Of a stretch of 39,655 bases of DNA, positions 6,503-36,444 are shown piece after piece. The notes beneath the pieces are model-generated. The model had not been told where the DNA came from. It searched no databases and was given only the letters and a program-made list of their open reading frames with translations. This DNA comes from Candidatus Thorarchaeota archaeon (GTDB lineage: Archaea; Asgardarchaeota; Thorarchaeia; Thorarchaeales; Thorarchaeaceae). The stretch is from assembly GCA_003345595.1 (NCBI GenBank), contig PRDI01000066.1, positions 1 to 39,655 of the forward strand, read 5' to 3'. Each line of letters begins with the position of its first letter. The stretch's first letter is position 1. Position numbers and translations under genes: made by a program.

Positions 6503-7318
6503 ATGGTGCGGCGATGCGAGTATTGCGACTCGCCAGTACCAGCAGATGCCACGGTCTGTCCTGTGTGCAGACAGGTCCTAGCCGAAGAAACCCTCGAAAG
6601 GGTTCTACCCATGCTAAAGAGACCTGGAGCACCCGAGGTCCGTGCATTGAGTGTCGGAGAAAGGCTGTGGGGTGTGATTAGACAACCTGCAGCGACTTAT
6701 CGTGACATCGGCCAGCGACCTGATGGAGCAGGGCCTTTCCTGATCGTACTGATGAACGCTCTGGTTCTTGCTGGCTTCTTCCTGGTTGTATCCTCGAAAT
6801 TCGCAGCGACAGTCGTCCTGAATCAGACAGCCGGTACCACTGCCATCGTGTCCGTCTTGGACACACAAGATGCCGGGCTCTACTACTTGACGGCTTTGGC
6901 TAGCATAGTGCCGAACATCATGCTCGGCTTTGTGTACCTACTGGTTGGAACTGCGTTTGCACACATAGCGTTCAAGATTACCGGGGGTTCCGGACGCGCA
7001 AGCAAGACCCTCGCTATCGTGGGCTACAGTATGATTCCCGTACTCATAATGCGACTAGTGGCACTAGTGGTGGTGTTTGCTGTCTTGCCCACTCACCTCG
7101 TTGACGACTTGGGCCTGTGGCCCAGCATAATCCAATCGATATACGATGCTGACGTGTGGCTAATCATAGACTATATGACGACCGCTGCATTTGTCTGGGT
7201 CGGCTTCCTCCTCATATTCGGCATCAGAGAAGCACACGACACGTCGACTGTGTGGGCATTTGTTGTTTCATCGGCATGTATGATAGTCTTGGTATGGACG
7301 TTCTGGCAAGCTCACTAA
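6503..7318 (+). CDS. Zn-ribbon + Yip1 domain membrane protein
   Basis: N-terminal CEYC...CPVC; LWGVIRQPAATYRDI, KITGGSG...TLAIVGYSMIP and GIREAH.S are Yip1 hallmarks; 5 TM segments. Confidence 0.8.
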   Translation: MVRRCEYCDSPVPADATVCPVCRQVLAEETLERVLPMLKRPGAPEVRALSVGERLWGVIRQPAATYRDIGQRPDGAGPFLIVLMNALVLAGFFLVVSSKFAATVVLNQTAGTTAIVSVLDTQDAGLYYLTALASIVPNIMLGFVYLLVGTAFAHIAFKITGGSGRASKTLAIVGYSMIPVLIMRLVALVVVFAVLPTHLVDDLGLWPSIIQSIYDADVWLIIDYMTTAAFVWVGFLLIFGIREAHDTSTVWAFVVSSACMIVLVWTFWQAH

Positions 7319-17974: not shown

Positions 17975-19543
17975 TTGAACGAAGATCCCTCAGTTCATGC
18001 ATGTCAAGTGTGCGGTAGCAATCGAGCCACTCATCTCTGTGAGGACTGCGGAGAGATACTGTGTCTGGACTGTATGGAAACGAAATCCAGCGTGCACTAT
18101 GTGTGCAGCAATTGCCATCATGCGCTAGGGACACCGCCGCCGGGGGAGAAGTTCGAGAGATGCCCAGAATGTGACTCGAAGGAGCTGAGTCTTGGCAAAC
18201 GCCTAGAAGAGATCTGTCCAAGATGTCACTCCTCGCGTACAGCTCCAATCGAGGAGAAGAGAAGAGCTCTAGCACAGGACATGCGTCGTGCAATCATGAG
18301 TATTCAGTACGGCTACATGAGGCTGAGAGACTTTACGAACAGGCTCACATCAGCGAAGAGGCTTCTGGTATCTCTTAGGATGGCCAACTTCCTTCACTAC
18401 CGATGGTTGGAAGACAAGATCGAGGACATACAGTCCGAGCTTCCGGCAATCAAGAACAGAGTTGCCAATCAGGCAGAGATCATTGCAAGACAGATGACGG
18501 CCGAAACCAAGGGCTTCCTCGACTACAACACATGGTCAGCGGCTCAGTTTCCCTTTATAGGAGGAGTGACCAACCGCATAACAGAACTTGGCAATCAGTA
18601 CAGGCGCAATGTCGATGAGGCTCTTGAGAGTGTACGACTTACAATCTCAGATTTGGAACAGCAACTGGATGGACTGGACTACTACAAGAAGCAGTTTGCA
18701 GGTTTCTACGACACTGCGGAGCTGTCGGTCAACGAACTGCCAGTCTGTGCTCTGCCTGAGATAAGGATTGCAGGCAGTGACTTCCTCAAGAATGACAAGG
18801 CTCTGGGCACGCTCTACATAACAAACAGGAGACTCATCTTCATTGCTGAAACAGGTCGGTTACGCAAGAAGACTGACATCATATTCGATTTCCCTCTCAT
18901 GTATCTGAAAAGCATCGAAGGTGACGGTCGTCTGAGGAAGAGGGTTGTCCTGAAGATGAAGCAGGGCGAAGTCAAGCTCTCTTGTAACGAGCAGACGGAG
19001 AAGGTGCTGCCAGACTATGTCGAAATCGCCAGGAAGTTCGACAAATACATGCAGTCGGATCTCCAGAGAACGAGGAAGCTCGGTCAATCAGATATCCCCG
19101 TCAGTGATGTTAGACTCAAGATCGAGGAGCTTGTGTACTCGCTCATCTCCTCAGGCGCCGCCGTAGAGCAAGACAGAGAAACGGGGAGGGCATCTGGTGC
19201 ATATCCGAGACATGTAGGGCCGTATGCGGCCGGCGCCCAGTTCCGGCGTGATTTCCGGCAGAGCAGCAGCCCCTACCCGCGTGACCGACTGAGAAGGGAC
19301 ATAGAAGGCATGTTTGAGAACCGAGAACAGCCACACCGACCAGATGGTTCAAGCAGTTACATGTCCAGCAGTGACACGTTGGTCATCGATGATGCAATAA
19401 AGGACACAGTGCATCTCTTCAGGAGCGGGCAACTGGTGCCCGAGGACTTCATCAGGCGATACAAGGGGCTCATGCGTGACTCATACGACACTAGAAGAAG
19501 ACTGGAGTCTGTTTCAAGATATGCGCAGAGTGTAGAGCGGTGA
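17975..19543 (+). CDS. ESCRT-I Vps23/TSG101-like steadiness-box protein with B-box/Zn fingers, coiled coil and GRAM/PH domain
   Basis: Six CxxC pairs in aa 9-85; long helical region; GTLYITNRRLIF..FDFPL..LKSIE (GRAM/GLUE-like). The C-terminal IDDAIKDTVHLFRSGQLVPEDFIRRYKGLMRDSY.TR matches the steadiness box. Adjacent to ESCRT-III. Confidence 0.72.
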   Translation: MNEDPSVHACQVCGSNRATHLCEDCGEILCLDCMETKSSVHYVCSNCHHALGTPPPGEKFERCPECDSKELSLGKRLEEICPRCHSSRTAPIEEKRRALAQDMRRAIMSIQYGYMRLRDFTNRLTSAKRLLVSLRMANFLHYRWLEDKIEDIQSELPAIKNRVANQAEIIARQMTAETKGFLDYNTWSAAQFPFIGGVTNRITELGNQYRRNVDEALESVRLTISDLEQQLDGLDYYKKQFAGFYDTAELSVNELPVCALPEIRIAGSDFLKNDKALGTLYITNRRLIFIAETGRLRKKTDIIFDFPLMYLKSIEGDGRLRKRVVLKMKQGEVKLSCNEQTEKVLPDYVEIARKFDKYMQSDLQRTRKLGQSDIPVSDVRLKIEELVYSLISSGAAVEQDRETGRASGAYPRHVGPYAAGAQFRRDFRQSSSPYPRDRLRRDIEGMFENREQPHRPDGSSSYMSSSDTLVIDDAIKDTVHLFRSGQLVPEDFIRRYKGLMRDSYDTRRRLESVSRYAQSVER

Positions 19544-20167
19544 TCAGACGCCCAGCTCTTTCTCAAGCGACTTGATGGCTTCTTCGAGCTCCTCGGCTTC
19601 TGTCACTGGTCTTGTACCCGAAGGCGCGCCAACAACCCCTGCGGCCGCATCTATCTCCTCCATGGCGGCTGCCATGTCTTCCGAGGTCACTTGGCTCTCT
19701 TTTGTGGAAACAAGAGCCTCTTCTGATATTCCGCTCTCAATTTCGAACTCTTCAAGCCTGCGAGTGATCTCGTCCAGATTCTGGATGACCTTTGTCGAGT
19801 CTGTTGCGTCGCTCAACATGCCAAGTATCTTCGCAACCTGTTCGACTGCTAATCCGGTCTTGGCGGTAGCTTGGGCCCGAGTGATGTGAGCAAGCACCCT
19901 CAAGAGATGAAGCCGTGAACGGTCAACTGACAGAGCGAATCTCCTAAAGCGAATCATCTCCGCCGCGTAGGTCCTGTATGCGTCTGTTTGGCCCTCCTTG
20001 CGGGCACGAACCGCTCGCGCCTTAGTATCGCGCTCCTCTTTCTCAAGCCTGTTCCTTTCGCGCTCAAGCTGCTTGGTCAGTATTCTGAGCTGGGATGTGA
20101 CCTCTGTAATGTCGGGTTTCCTACGACCCCAAGACATGGCTTTCTTGATTGTACCCAATGAGCTCAC
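19544..20167 (-). CDS. ESCRT-III subunit, Vps2/24/46 (CHMP1-3) class, Snf7 family
   Basis: Basic N-terminal hairpin (LRILTKQLERERNRLEKEE..KARAVRA), YAAEMIRFRR.AL..RSRLHL resembling Did2/CHMP1, acidic C-terminal half, MIM1-like ELEEAIKSLEKEL; divergent from Vps4. Confidence 0.88.
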   Translation of the reverse strand: MSSLGTIKKAMSWGRRKPDITEVTSQLRILTKQLERERNRLEKEERDTKARAVRARKEGQTDAYRTYAAEMIRFRRFALSVDRSRLHLLRVLAHITRAQATAKTGLAVEQVAKILGMLSDATDSTKVIQNLDEITRRLEEFEIESGISEEALVSTKESQVTSEDMAAAMEEIDAAAGVVGAPSGTRPVTEAEELEEAIKSLEKELGV

Positions 20168-20311
20168 CGCATCCGGGGAGAGACTCCCAAGTCGATTTCG
20201 GAGGCTGTCCGTTTAAACCTTCGCAGAAGACAAGACATCTTCGCCGAGGGCGAGTTTGAGAAACCTCGACACAGACCATGAACACACAAACTCTTAACCG
20301 CTGAAGAGCAA
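20168..20311. promoter_or_regulatory. Divergent promoter region between ESCRT-III and vps4
   Basis: GTTTAAAC at 20211-20218 is TATA-like for the minus-strand gene. AAACTCTTAAC at 20288-20298 is TATA-like for vps4. Confidence 0.4.
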
Positions 20312-21556
20312 ATGGCATTCGAACGCGAAATGTCAGGATCAGATGCTGACCGGCTGGACTTGGGCTTAAGGGCTCTCCTAGACAAGGCCATTGACCTTGA
20401 TTATAGAGGGATGAAGAAAGAGGCCTGCCAATACTATCTCAAGGCCAGCAAGATCCTCATCAAACTCTCCAATTCGACCTCATTGCCATCACTCCGCAAG
20501 CACTACTTCGACAGGGCTCAGGAGTGTGTGGATCGTGTGAAGCGCATCTCTGGAGCAAAGGGAGTCGCCGGCCCACCAGACAGCCTCAGAAGACTGGTGA
20601 CACAACCAGGAGAAAAGATCCAGAAGACTGCGACACGATCGGCATCAGAGGAAACAGAGGAAATCGACGAGGACACAAAGAGGCTTCGTGAGATGATTGC
20701 GGACACCATCATAGCTGAGCGGCCGGACGTAAAGATGTCAGAAGTGGCAGGACTAGAGGAGGCAAAGCAGGCAATCCAAGAGGCTGTAGTCGCCCCGATG
20801 AAACACCCGGAGCTGTTCAAGGGAAAGGCAAGACAGCCATGGAGAGGAATCCTGTTTTATGGACCAGCGGGCTGCGGCAAGACTCTCATAGCAAAAGCTG
20901 TTGCTTCGGAGGTGAACGCGACCTTCTTTAACGTGTCAGCAGGAAACATAGTGAGCAAGTGGTTGGGAGAGTCTGAGAAGCTTGTCATGACACTGTTTGA
21001 TATGGCGAGGAAGAACCAGCCGGCAATCATCTTCGTCGATGAACTTGACTCAGTCGGTGTTTCCAGATCCGATCACGATGTTGGAGGCGAGCGGAGGCTC
21101 AAGACTCAGCTGCTGACTGAGCTTCAAGGAGTGGCCAGCAACCCAAAGGAACGAGTCACAGTCATCGGTGCCACCAACCTACCATGGCAACTTGATTTTG
21201 CCCTGAGGTCTAGGTTTGAGAAGAGAATCCATATTCCCCTTCCTGGAAAGACATCACGACGAACGATGTTTGAGCTACATATGGAGGATGTAGAGGTTTC
21301 ACACGACGTTGACTTCGATGAACTTGCGGACCTGACAGAGGGCTATAGTGGTCGGGACATCAGCGTTGTGTGCAGGGAAGCTGCCATGGAGCCTATAAGA
21401 GATCTCCAGAGTACTGGAGAAATGGACCGCGATGGCCCGATTGAAAACATCCGACCTGTTTCGAGGCAGGATTTCCTCCAAGCCATTGACAGCATTGGAC
21501 CCGGTACTTCTCCCGAGGACGTGAAGAAGTATGTCGATTGGGCGGAGGCAACATAG
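20312..21556 (+). CDS. vps4: Vps4 AAA+ ATPase with N-terminal MIT domain
   Basis: MIT (KAIDLD..G.KKEACQYYLKA), ERPDVK..EVAGLEEAK, PWRGILFYGPAGCGKT, pore loop SKWLGESEK, IFVDELDS, RRLKTQLL, GATNLPWQLD, TEGYSGRDI. Confidence 0.95.
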   Translation: MAFEREMSGSDADRLDLGLRALLDKAIDLDYRGMKKEACQYYLKASKILIKLSNSTSLPSLRKHYFDRAQECVDRVKRISGAKGVAGPPDSLRRLVTQPGEKIQKTATRSASEETEEIDEDTKRLREMIADTIIAERPDVKMSEVAGLEEAKQAIQEAVVAPMKHPELFKGKARQPWRGILFYGPAGCGKTLIAKAVASEVNATFFNVSAGNIVSKWLGESEKLVMTLFDMARKNQPAIIFVDELDSVGVSRSDHDVGGERRLKTQLLTELQGVASNPKERVTVIGATNLPWQLDFALRSRFEKRIHIPLPGKTSRRTMFELHMEDVEVSHDVDFDELADLTEGYSGRDISVVCREAAMEPIRDLQSTGEMDRDGPIENIRPVSRQDFLQAIDSIGPGTSPEDVKKYVDWAEAT

Positions 21557-21559
21557 GCT

Positions 21560-22279
21560 GTGAGTGTGAAGGAACGACGAAGGCAGAAGGAGCGATCCAA
21601 GCCCCGAAGTGAGTCCAAGCATCAGGAGGGTGCGGTGGACACTGAGGCCAGCATCGAAAGCTTCGTCACTTCCGAGCAAGTCGAATCCCCTCTCGAAACT
21701 CCGGAAACAACTCAAGTTGCCGAGCCCGAACCGCAGGTTTCGGAGCCCGTCACTGAGGAGGCTCTCGTGCCACAGGTACTTCTGCCGCGGTGGGGTGACA
21801 ACAAAGAGTCAGAATGGATGTACCAGATTCCTCCCAGAGATGAGGACAGAGATATGTGGATGAATGAGTGGGCCGACTTCGTGATCCAGTGGACGCAGTC
21901 AAAAGGCCTTCATGTCCTCTCTGTTTCAGCCTTCATCAAGGAACCACCTTTCAGAGACATGCTTGGAAAGGTAGACGCTTTCAGACTGATTGGAAACGCA
22001 TTGGTCGACAAGGGAGTTGCAGAATGGCTTGATGACAAGAAGCGCCAACTCCGAGTCTACTGGAGACCCCTTGAGGAATGGGCCGATTTGGTATATGGGT
22101 GGGCCATTGAAACGGGAAACCTGCACCTAGATGTCAAATCCATAATCATACAGGAAGCTAGTAGGGAGTTTGCCAGTCTTCCTGAGAGAGACTTGCATCA
22201 AGTAATGGAGATGCTTGTAGACAGAAAAGTGGCAGAGTGGGTGGATAGGAAGAGGGGGGCAATACTAATCCGAGTGTGA
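21560..22279 (+). CDS. vps25: ESCRT-II subunit Vps25-like
   Basis: W.DFVIQW, PPF, LVDKGVAEWLD...VYWRPLEEWADLVYGWA.ETG is the Vps25 tandem winged-helix signature; 3 bp downstream of vps4. Confidence 0.88.
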   Translation: MSVKERRRQKERSKPRSESKHQEGAVDTEASIESFVTSEQVESPLETPETTQVAEPEPQVSEPVTEEALVPQVLLPRWGDNKESEWMYQIPPRDEDRDMWMNEWADFVIQWTQSKGLHVLSVSAFIKEPPFRDMLGKVDAFRLIGNALVDKGVAEWLDDKKRQLRVYWRPLEEWADLVYGWAIETGNLHLDVKSIIIQEASREFASLPERDLHQVMEMLVDRKVAEWVDRKRGAILIRV

Positions 22280-22284
22280 TTCCC

Positions 22285-23022
22285 CTATACCGAGCCGTTC
22301 CTGCCTCGAAGTCCTGGAAAGTAATACCGTCCCCCCGTGGAGAAACGGATGTCGGCGACAGCCATGCCTGAGTCGACCAGGCTAGACAGGACTTGGCGCG
22401 CGTGATCTTCAGACCACTTCAGCTGCATCATGAGTTCCTCTATAGAAACATGCCCTTTTGTAGCGGCTATGTTGATGACATCAGCCTGGTCTCTCCGCAG
22501 CTCAAGTGGACGCAGCTCGACGACCTTTACGCCGCCCCTTAGTGTTCTGATGCCAGGGATGAGACCGTGTTCTGCGACGCGGTTCACAGCCTCGATCACG
22601 TCATTGTAGCTCACAGATTTGAGTTCTGGGATAAGGCGCACTACCTCCACTATGAGTTCTGCCAGTCCCATGAGGCCCTTAGATGCGTTTGCCGTAGCAA
22701 CATCGAGCACGGCCAATCCGATGTGGTCATAGTATTCCTCGGTGGTCATGCCCTCGATTGAGGCCATTGAGCTCTTGCCGTGAAGACCCAACAGGACTGA
22801 TGCATCCGGAAATGACTCAAGCACCCTCTCTTGGTCGATGAAATTCACAGGATCTATGCCCATGTGTCGAAGGTCTTCGATACAGTCCTTGACCTCCGCA
22901 AGAAGCGCATCTGATTCCCTCTGAAATGACCGTACATCCACGGTCCCCATGTCGTACATCTTCTTGAGCTGATCCAGCGTCGCAATCGACGCCCATAGCT
23001 CGGATTGGAGTCGTTCACTCAT
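22285..23022 (-). CDS. ESCRT-II Vps22/36 (EAP30) protein with N-terminal Vps28-like headpiece
   Basis: EAP30 motifs: YYDHIGLAVL..GLMGLAEL, VSYNDV.EAV, PLEL..DQ..V, L.WS...A...L..LV..G....D....YYFP. N-terminal ELWASIATLDQLKKMY resembles Vps28. Confidence 0.85.
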   Translation of the reverse strand: MSERLQSELWASIATLDQLKKMYDMGTVDVRSFQRESDALLAEVKDCIEDLRHMGIDPVNFIDQERVLESFPDASVLLGLHGKSSMASIEGMTTEEYYDHIGLAVLDVATANASKGLMGLAELIVEVVRLIPELKSVSYNDVIEAVNRVAEHGLIPGIRTLRGGVKVVELRPLELRRDQADVINIAATKGHVSIEELMMQLKWSEDHARQVLSSLVDSGMAVADIRFSTGGRYYFPGLRGRNGSV

Positions 23023-35229: not shown

Positions 35230-36444
35230 TTGAGTAGCAGGAGAAAGAGAATCGTCTTTGACCAGACACAGAACGAGAGAGGACGTCTTGAAACTACCTA
35301 CTCTCAGCTTGGCCAGCTCCTCACAGACCACGACTTCAGTGTCGAACCGTACACTGATTACATGATTATGACCAAGGGTCTCGAGGGTGTGAGCGTTTTT
35401 GTACTGGCATGCCCCAACAGCTCTAAGCTGAGACCAGCCGAGGCCGATGCTCTAAGAAAGTTCGTGCAGGACGGCGGTGGTCTCATGCTCCTGTCACTAT
35501 CAGGTGGTGATAGAGGACTCATGAACAACATGAGTATGCTCTCAAAGAACTTCGGCGTGGAGTTTGATAACACGGCTGTCAAGGACGAGAGACACAATGC
35601 AGGGCTTCCCACGTTGCCCATCATTACGGGACTGGTGCCGCACCCCATCAGTGAGGACGTCAGTGACGTCGTTCTTCCATCGCCGTGCAGCTTGAGACTG
35701 TCCGGAAAGGCAGTCGCAGTTGCCATCACCTCACAGGCGGCAGACCCGGCCAGTCAGCCCGTCATAGCGGCAGTGCAGTATGAAAAGGGCAGGGTGGTCT
35801 GCGTGGGAAGCTATGAGGTGTTCCGGAAAGGTGGCGGCCTCAAGAATGAGGGCAACGTTAGGTTTGCTGCCAACTGTTTCAGATGGCTCAGTGGGGATGT
35901 ACAACTGACCAAGCCTAGCGAGGTCGTCGCCGCACAGGCAAAGGCCGAGGAATCTAGGAGCAGACCCGGTGAAACAGCTGAGTCAGTGACATCTTCGGAA
36001 ACAGAGAAGACTCTTCGCAGACTCATCAATACAGTCTTTGACCTCCAGAAGGATATTGGACGTGCGACTGAAGGTATTAGTAGGGTGGAGAAGAACATCG
36101 AAACTCTAAGATCCCAGTTTCAGGACTTCGCGGACAAGATTCAACAGCAGCTCGGTGTTATGGTGCCTACGGGACAGTTCAGGACAGAAGATGAGAACAG
36201 GGCCGCAGAAGTTGAGGCCGATGTGACTTCCCTAGAGAAAGAGCTTAGATCTGTGCAGCAGCTCCGTGATCATATTGAACAGAGACACTCGTCAGGTGCC
36301 ATGACGAAGGAAGCCTATCTTGAACAGACACAGAAGCTGGACGAGCGAGTCGTAAACCTGAACAAGAGACTCGCCGAAAAACGAGAGGAACTGAAACGGC
36401 TTAACGCCCAGCCAGAGAGCACTGTTGCTGGACAAGGACAGTGA
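35230..36444 (+). CDS. GIFT (IFT52/GldG-like, GATase-I fold) domain protein with coiled-coil C-terminus
   Basis: IVFDQTQNE, FVLACP..KL..AE..AL.KFV..GGGL.LL..SGG, GRVVCVGS, N..F..N.FRWL; two long heptad segments follow. Confidence 0.75.
   Translation: MSSRRKRIVFDQTQNERGRLETTYSQLGQLLTDHDFSVEPYTDYMIMTKGLEGVSVFVLACPNSSKLRPAEADALRKFVQDGGGLMLLSLSGGDRGLMNNMSMLSKNFGVEFDNTAVKDERHNAGLPTLPIITGLVPHPISEDVSDVVLPSPCSLRLSGKAVAVAITSQAADPASQPVIAAVQYEKGRVVCVGSYEVFRKGGGLKNEGNVRFAANCFRWLSGDVQLTKPSEVVAAQAKAEESRSRPGETAESVTSSETEKTLRRLINTVFDLQKDIGRATEGISRVEKNIETLRSQFQDFADKIQQQLGVMVPTGQFRTEDENRAAEVEADVTSLEKELRSVQQLRDHIEQRHSSGAMTKEAYLEQTQKLDERVVNLNKRLAEKREELKRLNAQPESTVAGQGQ

Follow-up and report, generated by a model that had tools for sequence, protein, structure and literature searches.

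How are ESCRT subunits joined to one another in an archaeon whose ESCRT-I and ESCRT-II modules appear to be shuffled between protein chains? The question is raised by positions 17975–23022 of contig PRDI01000066.1 (assembly GCA_003345595.1) from a Candidatus Thorarchaeota archaeon; the whole stretch of 39,655 nucleotides that was analysed is referred to as the window. A preliminary description had read this region as a compact, apparently ubiquitin-independent ESCRT locus with an architecture not known to have been described, in which a single headpiece contact would connect a membrane-targeting protein to ESCRT-II. We compared each of these points with profile searches, structure models and Asgard genomes.

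A conserved five-gene ESCRT cluster

Five abutting ORFs fill positions 17975–23022, as first described, and domain matches were obtained for all five products. They encode, in gene order, Znr_CC_PH_SB, an ESCRT-I-like targeting subunit (17975–19543, forward strand, 522 aa, TTG start); an ESCRT-III protein of the Vps2/24/46 class (19544–20167, reverse, 207 aa); Vps4 with MIT, AAA and Vps4_C domains (20312–21556, forward, 414 aa); Vps25 (21560–22279, forward, 239 aa); and a Vps28N–Vps22 fusion (22285–23022, reverse, 245 aa). The intergenic gaps measure 0, 144, 3 and 5 bp. Though contiguous, the genes alternate in orientation and thus do not form one operon.

The three middle proteins are readily classified. 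The ESCRT-III protein matches Pfam Snf7 (E = 1e-9), its best PDB matches are CHMP3 (1e-6), CHMP2A (4e-6) and CHMP1B (6e-6), and its C-terminus carries an L-x3-I-x2-L MIM1-like helix, the spacing of which was judged by eye alone; a Snf7 core nearest to CHMP2/3/1 combined with a MIM1-type helical tail defines the Vps2/24/46 class. Vps4 matches AAA (6e-40), AAA_lid_3 (6e-15) and CdvC (7e-82) in Pfam and NCBIfam, together with weak MIT (6e-4) and Vps4_C (5e-4) matches that are under the Pfam cut-offs but correctly placed. Vps25 matches PF05871 over residues 88–188 (E = 4e-15; 56.6 bits, cut-off 27) and begins with an extension of ~85 aa, basic then acidic, that is also present in ThorAB25_09020. 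Compact as it is, the locus is incomplete: a second, Vps20/32/60-like ESCRT-III is encoded elsewhere in same-genus genomes, so that the cluster is not self-contained. A tblastn search with a same-genus query did not find this second protein in the present, 83% complete assembly.

Nor is the architecture undescribed. Hatano et al (2022; PMC9192718) cloned the five-gene locus ThorAB25_08990–09030 for yeast two-hybrid tests, and their Supplementary Data list ThorAB25_08990 (SB), 09020 (Vps25) and 09030 (Vps22). These are orthologues of our first, fourth and fifth genes, their locus tags fit an identical gene order, and they share the N-termini seen here, among them the acidic extension of Vps25 and a Vps22 that starts like Vps28; that locus differs in coming from another genus and in its first and last proteins being labelled simply “SB” and “Vps22” (PMC9192718). 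Makarova et al (2024; PMC10936438) describe Znr_CC_PH_SB (cog.011556), in which three Zn ribbons are followed by coiled coil, PH domain and steadiness box (SB), as well as a “Vps22#” fused to an SB (cog.002769), with residues 1–70 of the Thorarchaeota Vps22 matching PF03997, the Vps28 N-terminal SB, at an HHpred probability of 99% in their Table S3. As presented in that table and text, cog.011556 and Vps22# show no architectural difference from the proteins of this locus. The lack of ubiquitin in Thorarchaeota is likewise noted by Hatano et al (2022). The cluster, its parts and the missing ubiquitin are therefore already published: positions 17975–23022 are a conserved ESCRT cluster of Thorarchaeota, and the identity of the parts of its five proteins is near certain.

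The two hairpin proteins

The first protein is the orthologue of ThorAB25_08990|SB and has the complete cog.011556 domain order. At least 168 homologues, all from Thorarchaeota and 47–90% identical, start at a common alignment column, and the AlphaFold2 model has a pLDDT of 81.5. The three Zn ribbons (residues 10–85; 18002–18229, forward) comprise six CxxC pairs, which are kept across the family alignment, adopt short beta-strands in the model and give a weak Pfam DZR match. A coiled-coil “stalk” of three long helices follows (residues 92–241; 18248–18697, forward), with helices 92–136, 143–178 and 189–241 modelled at a pLDDT of around 90. The PH/GRAM-like domain (residues 256–357; 18740–19045, forward) has weak Pfam bPH_3 and GRAM matches, and Foldseek relates it to the EAP45/Vps36 GLUE domain (2hth_B, TM 0.56; 2dx5_A, TM 0.64; 19% identity), to the Lam6 PH-like domain and to the MTMR2 GRAM domain. 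Znr_CC_PH_SB thus resembles eukaryotic Vps36, with its split-PH GLUE domain and NZF fingers, in placing a GRAM-like PH domain beside zinc fingers in one ESCRT subunit; however, the fingers do not interrupt its PH domain, the SB chain and not a winged-helix chain carries the module, and at 19% identity the sequences are unrelated.

At the C-terminus lies a Vps23-type steadiness-box hairpin (residues 460–521; 19352–19537, forward; pLDDT >90). Its family profile places yeast Vps23 on top of the PDB matches (2p22_A at E = 0.0095, 2f66_A, 2caz_A; range 0.0095–0.052), and BLASTP aligns it to the SB of Asgard UEV-Vps23 at E = 8e-8. Two results weigh against the Vps23 assignment: its PDB match is at E about 0.01, and Pfam Vps23_core gives no match in this hairpin. 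A Thorarchaeota-only profile of the hairpin found nothing in five non-Thorarchaeota Asgard genomes. The N-terminal UEV domain typical of Vps23/TSG101 is absent, as searches of the protein and of the whole genome for UEV or UQ_con showed.

CdvA recruits CdvB in TACK archaea. By analogy, the module might be a CdvA-like division-site anchor instead of a cargo sorter, with the membrane-bound PH/Zn protein recruiting winged-helix proteins and ESCRT-III for cytokinesis. In each Asgard family that was checked, the Znr_CC_PH_SB gene has an ESCRT-III gene as its neighbour, and Makarova et al (2024; PMC10936438) relate the SB hairpin to CdvA. We regard this reading as unlikely, if worth weighing; it bears on the cellular role of the module, for which division, vesicle budding and repair are candidates, but not on the order in which it would assemble.

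The last protein, the orthologue of ThorAB25_09030|Vps22 (AlphaFold2 pLDDT 83.6), combines a Vps28 N-terminal domain (residues 1–77; 22792–23022, reverse), made of a hairpin of helices 2–24 and 30–53 plus short helices, with a Vps22 helix and two winged-helix domains (residues 94–234; 22321–22743, reverse). The four best PDB matches of the N-domain profile are all yeast Vps28 N-domains (2p22_B, 2f66_B, 2caz_B and 2f6m_B; E = 0.004–0.007), canonical Asgard Vps28 genes are matched at E = 1e-12 to 1e-20, and Foldseek superposes the fusion on the human ESCRT-I headpiece chain 6vme_V (rmsd 1.9 Å, 79 columns). A sister-family orthologue of the fusion clears the Pfam VPS28 cut-off (26.9 versus 24.5 bits). 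Pfam EAP30 covers residues 52–224 (E = 7e-15), and the tandem EAP30 winged helices are nearer to Vps22 than to Vps36, with human and yeast Vps22 heading the Foldseek matches (9e-10 to 2e-7) and Vps36 chains behind (1e-5). Positions 64–218 of the EAP30 model are matched; positions 1–63 are missing and are replaced by the Vps28N domain, the N-terminal helical domain of Vps22/SNF8 being absent. The Vps28 C-terminal four-helix bundle, which binds ESCRT-II, is absent too: in the fusion, the hairpin leads on to the winged helices of EAP30, and the genome has no PF03997 match.

Profile matches and structure models agree on the domain reading proposed earlier for these two odd proteins, the searches returning Vps23 for the first and Vps28 for the last. 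Family profiles were required in both cases, as single-sequence Pfam and NCBIfam scans detected neither Vps23_core nor VPS28 in the hairpins. The two are of different hairpin types and not recent duplicates of each other, hhalign of their profiles against each other being not significant (probability 5%).

Across Asgard genomes the fusion is confined to the Thorarchaeota order. In two other genomes (G102 and G086) the homologous N-domain forms part of a full-length Vps28 encoded between UEV-Vps23 and a full-length Vps22. Because the non-Thorarchaeota domain sits in a canonical Vps28 within a vps23–vps28–vps22 row, a deletion–fusion origin is suggested: most likely, such a row lost the C-domain of Vps28 together with the N-helices of Vps22, and the fusion resulted.

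Predicted docking of the two hairpins

The eukaryotic headpiece consists of three hairpins. Our complex model took in two, the C-terminal hairpin of the first protein and the N-terminal hairpin of the fusion, and reached an ipSAE of 0.67, compared with 0.01 for the best of three controls; of 80 solved complexes 58 attain this mark, as do 2 of 110 mismatched pairs, counts that apply only roughly here because our own alignments were used. At least 94% of contacts agreed between runs, with a partner pLDDT of at least 78. The predicted interface on Znr_CC_PH_SB spans residues 479–508. Conservation is higher at the interface than over the rest of each hairpin (0.72 versus 0.56, and 0.82 versus 0.68); among the contact residues A11, A14 and T15 are invariant and R483, E490, Y496, M500 and R501 near-invariant. 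The model may reflect memory of solved yeast and human ESCRT-I headpieces and is to be read as likeness, not binding.

Both profiles match partner chains of common crystal entries (Vps23 as chain A and Vps28 as chain B of 2p22, 2f66 and 2caz), and both genes were found in 25 genomes of the family, 24 of which have them on one contig, about 4.7–5.7 kb apart. Compared with the yeast and human ESCRT-I headpiece (Vps23–Vps28–Vps37; PDB 2F66, 2P22, 2CAZ, 6VME), one hairpin corresponds to Vps23 and the other to Vps28, and the model places them next to each other; here, however, UEV and the C-terminal bundle of Vps28 are absent, no Vps37 is recognised, and the Vps28 hairpin belongs to the ESCRT-II chain. 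On the strength of the model and the profile matches, the steadiness-box hairpin probably docks on the Vps28-type hairpin; the module shuffling and headpiece link of the preliminary description are to this extent upheld, while their novelty is not. The pairing of the two hairpins with each other is not stated in the text of Makarova et al (2024; PMC10936438).

The same hairpin could serve a different contact. In eukaryotic ESCRT-II, Vps22 is tied to Vps36 through N-terminal helices, and the Vps28-type hairpin might mainly join two Vps22 chains, replacing these lost helices (EAP30 positions 1–63), while the steadiness box pairs elsewhere, for instance with a conserved Thorarchaeota coiled-coil/hairpin protein of 213 aa encoded on contig C39 (314 homologues, 75–95% identity), the C-terminal hairpin of which looks SB-like and has a weak PF18822 match. 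In yeast two-hybrid tests Thorarchaeota Vps22 self-interacts. In the same study a Lokiarchaeota SB protein binds Vps22, which speaks for docking, although a Thorarchaeota SB–Vps22 interaction is not stated in its text (Hatano et al, 2022; PMC9192718). The heteromeric hairpin model scores well above its controls and involves conserved surfaces, however, and the C39 hairpin is significantly similar neither to the two SB profiles nor to the PDB, so that its identification as a steadiness-box protein was rejected for want of statistical support. We therefore consider Vps22 dimerization as the main function of the hairpin distinctly doubtful; it would also be compatible with docking, as a three-hairpin headpiece is possible. 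The docking reading thereby comes down to a pair of short hairpins whose conserved contact residues can be named.

Ubiquitin and the proposed assembly order

No ubiquitin-system domain was found in any larger ORF of the window, as the preliminary description had noted, and the whole-genome search that it called for returned no match to ubiquitin, E2, UEV (and hence UEV-Vps23) or standalone Vps28 in this 83% complete Thorarchaeota MAG. One search applied to all genomes detected ubiquitin in none of the 26 genomes from the archaeon's own family, versus 107 of 151 sampled Asgard genomes. This is a Thorarchaeota lineage without detectable ubiquitin, E2, UEV-Vps23 and full-length Vps28, in this genome and in its family alike. 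Two weak matches were dismissed. A 425-aa coiled-coil protein of one Thorarchaeota genus matches PF03997 at 21–25 bits, and its orthologue here (C115:19346–20602) has no VPS28 match in Pfam or the PDB; a weak EAP30 match on contig C49 falls on a winged helix that belongs to MCM.

The term ubiquitin-independent applies to the genome and its family, as a trait of the lineage. It is not owed to the PH/Zn protein: Znr_CC_PH_SB proteins are present in 104 of the 151 Asgard genomes sampled, and the majority of these 104 have ubiquitin. That the GLUE-like PH domain and Zn ribbons read cargo tagged with a SAMP/Urm1/ThiS-type ubiquitin-like protein or a very divergent ubiquitin is quite improbable: among ESCRT structures the PH domain comes closest to a ubiquitin-binding GLUE domain, and most Asgard families have both Znr_CC_PH_SB and ubiquitin, but ubiquitin, E2 and UEV are unmatched in this genome, and ubiquitin is missing from all 26 family genomes while found in 107 other Asgard genomes.

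As the best explanation of the whole, a conserved Thorarchaeota ESCRT cluster with the following assembly order seems to us reasonably probable. The PH domain of Znr_CC_PH_SB, perhaps with its three Zn ribbons, would select membrane or cargo, lipid binding being putative. The Vps23-type hairpin would pack on the Vps28-type hairpin covalently joined to Vps22, and this headpiece contact would bring in ESCRT-II directly, without a Vps28 C-terminal domain. Vps22 would bind Vps25, Vps25 would nucleate the Vps20/32/60-type ESCRT-III encoded outside the cluster, and the clustered Vps2/24/46-type ESCRT-III and Vps4 would complete and recycle the polymer.

More tentatively, and with slightly less than even confidence, the Thorarchaeota order may have lost UEV-Vps23 and the Vps28 C-domain, the half of ESCRT-I that reads ubiquitin, after which an in-frame deletion across the adjacent vps28 and vps22 genes would have hard-wired the headpiece hairpin to ESCRT-II. 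Its pairing with the hairpin of the PH/Zn-ribbon SB protein, the older of the partners, would then be the sole entry point of a minimised, ubiquitin-free ESCRT-I/II, and the SB protein itself an ancestral, CdvA-like membrane adaptor of Asgard ESCRT. The cluster shows how, in a ubiquitin-free Asgard lineage, ESCRT-II, ESCRT-III and Vps4 may nevertheless be connected to a subunit that targets membranes, and it bears on which parts of the eukaryotic ubiquitin–ESCRT pathway are ancestral.

Gene content of the ESCRT locus

Five abutting ORFs occupy window positions 17975-23022 in the orientations +, -, +, + and -, separated by gaps of 0, 144, 3 and 5 bp. The cluster is flanked upstream by an arginyl-tRNA synthetase and two TldD/PmbA genes and downstream by a class II Asp/Asn-type tRNA synthetase, all of them housekeeping genes. 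The window corresponds to one complete contig (C66) in an assembly of 2.73 Mb (129 contigs, 83% complete), and the nearest homologues of its proteins are labelled Candidatus Thorarchaeota. Elsewhere in the window, a eukaryote-like flavour attaches to a Yip1-domain membrane protein (6503-7318, +; 1e-21), an IFT52 GIFT-domain protein (35230-36444, +; 2e-15) and a weak PCI-domain match (222-788, -; 4e-4).

The preliminary description of the five genes proved sound. The second gene (19544-20167, -) encodes an ESCRT-III protein (Snf7, E = 1e-9), assigned to the Vps2/24/46 class because its closest solved structures are CHMP3, CHMP2A and CHMP1B. The third (20312-21556, +) is Vps4 (AAA, 6e-40; CdvC, 7e-82), with MIT and Vps4_C matches that are weak but correctly placed, and the fourth (21560-22279, +) is Vps25 (PF05871, E = 4e-15), whose N-terminal extension, basic and then acidic, is common to the published Thor orthologue. 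In three of three same-genus genomes, a second ESCRT-III of the Vps20/32/60 type with the Vps20-like start MGFLSGKKK is encoded apart from the cluster (e.g. G019:C2:91541-92026), and the cluster is therefore not self-contained. This nucleating ESCRT-III was not found in the 83% complete assembly and probably sits in the unassembled 17% of the genome.

Two proteins with ESCRT-I hairpins

For the product of the first gene (17975-19543, +; 522 aa), AlphaFold2 gave a confident model (pLDDT 81.5, alignment of 48 homologues) with three Zn ribbons (residues 10-85, six conserved CxxC pairs on small beta structures), three long helices (92-241), a PH domain (256-357) followed by a disordered linker, and a C-terminal helical hairpin (460-521, pLDDT >90). 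Foldseek confirmed the PH fold, its ESCRT match being the EAP45/Vps36 GLUE domain (TM 0.56-0.64, 19% identity), alongside GRAM-type PH domains. Pfam Vps23_core has no match in this protein. A profile of the last 68 residues searched against the PDB placed yeast Vps23 on top (2p22_A, E = 0.0095; 2f66_A, 0.019; 2caz_A, 0.052), aligned on its steadiness box (SB), and the SB of a canonical Asgard UEV-Vps23 aligns over 49 gapless residues (E = 8e-8; 9e-4 with hhalign). The TTG start is backed by homologue alignment; the recorded protein (489 aa, 100% identical) starts later and so lacks the first Zn ribbon.

The fifth gene (22285-23022, -) encodes a 245-aa fusion (model pLDDT 83.6). Its N-terminal hairpin (residues 2-24 and 30-53) is followed by short helices as far as residue 77, and a disordered linker joins this part to a single helix and a pair of winged helices. 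The best Foldseek matches are human and yeast Vps22 (9e-10 to 2e-7), with Vps36 behind, and a human ESCRT-I headpiece chain matches the N-terminal part (rmsd 1.9 A over 79 columns). The four best PDB matches of a profile of residues 1-92 are the yeast Vps28 N-domain (E = 0.004-0.007), and the sister-family fusion clears Pfam's own cut-offs for VPS28 and EAP30 alike.

This N-domain profile found one gene each in 105 of 151 Asgard genomes. Matches from the Thor family and its sister family are the fusion, in ORFs of 250-280 aa; those from other families (1e-12 to 1e-20) mostly belong to ORFs of roughly 205-240 aa, with longer ones of about 300-490 aa in a few families. Both short ORFs checked are full-length Vps28 (Pfam 2e-17 and 1.5e-13), each with UEV-Vps23 upstream and full-length Vps22 downstream. 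Given this row, and with EAP30 model positions 1-63 and the Vps28 C-domain both missing from the fusion, the simplest origin would be a deletion spanning adjacent vps28 and vps22 genes.

A second EAP30/Vps22-like protein, of 799 aa, is encoded on contig C39 of this genome (L005:8027-10426, +; C39:20026-22425). Its winged helices share 33% identity with the fusion's and are preceded by about 590 aa of coiled coil and other domains. Its family (about 745-800 aa) occurs mainly in Thorarchaeota, and its gene is divergent from those of an Arf-family small GTPase and a protein with a weak HTH_Cmi2_C match. Contig C39 also carries the gene for a 213-aa protein (L005:4713-5354, -) in which a long Pro/Ala-rich linker connects an N-terminal helix to a C-terminal hairpin. 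The protein has a weak PF18822 (CdvA/SB) match, and its hairpin has a steadiness-box-like turn (G-x-I-P-E-D-E-Y) and 75-95% identity among 314 Thorarchaeota proteins. This hairpin, a candidate for a third, Vps37-like headpiece hairpin, showed no significant similarity to either SB profile.

Ubiquitin, canonical partners and earlier reports

The absence of a ubiquitin system, first noted for the window, was borne out in all its larger ORFs and extended to the 83% complete genome, in which ubiquitin, UEV, UQ_con, VPS28 and Vps23_core had no matches. Ubiquitin was likewise found in none of 26 genomes of the family; we regard the search as valid because it detected ubiquitin in 107 of 151 Asgard genomes. 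Weak VPS28 matches in one Thor genus were discarded, since they lie inside a coiled-coil protein whose orthologue here carries no Vps28 signal. The PH/Zn SB protein occurs in 104 of the 151 genomes (41 of 52 genera), mostly together with ubiquitin, and is not linked to ubiquitin loss. Its gene adjoins an ESCRT-III gene wherever coordinates could be compared, and it shares a contig with the fusion gene, 4.7-5.7 kb apart, in 24 of 25 same-family genomes having both.

The architecture, initially not known to have been described, is already in the literature. Makarova et al. (2024, PMC10936438) list Znr_CC_PH_SB (cog.011556), the family of the first protein, as a likely ESCRT-I component and cog.002769 as Vps22 fused to SB, with residues 1-70 of a Thorarchaeota Vps22 matched to PF03997 ('N-terminal domain - SB', 99%). 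Hatano et al. (2022, PMC9192718) cloned ThorAB25_08990 (SB), 09020 (Vps25) and 09030 (Vps22), by sequence clearly orthologous to genes one, four and five of this locus, for yeast two-hybrid assays, and reported self-interaction of Thor Vps22, binding of a Lokiarchaeota SB protein to Vps22 and the lack of ubiquitin in Thorarchaeota. A 2023 preprint reports Thorarchaeia to lack UEV-Vps23.

Predicted pairing of the hairpins

The two hairpins correspond to partner chains, Vps23 and Vps28, of the same crystal structures. Modelled as a complex, residues 455-522 of the first protein and residues 1-92 of the fusion scored 0.67 (best of three controls, 0.01), passing a mark attained by 58 of 80 solved complexes versus 2 of 110 mismatched pairs, counts that apply only roughly because custom alignments were fed to the model. 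Runs agreed in at least 94% of contacts, with partner pLDDT of at least 78. Since like complexes, the yeast and human ESCRT-I headpieces, are already solved, this pass may reflect memory, and the model shows likeness, not binding. Predicted contact residues are better conserved than the remainder of either hairpin (0.72 versus 0.56 and 0.82 versus 0.68) and include the invariant A11, A14 and T15 and the near-invariant R483, E490, Y496, M500 and R501. The proposed wiring, a headpiece contact linking both chains, is sound and now better supported; docking of hairpin to hairpin would be a reasonable, testable corollary of the known architecture rather than a new kind of system.
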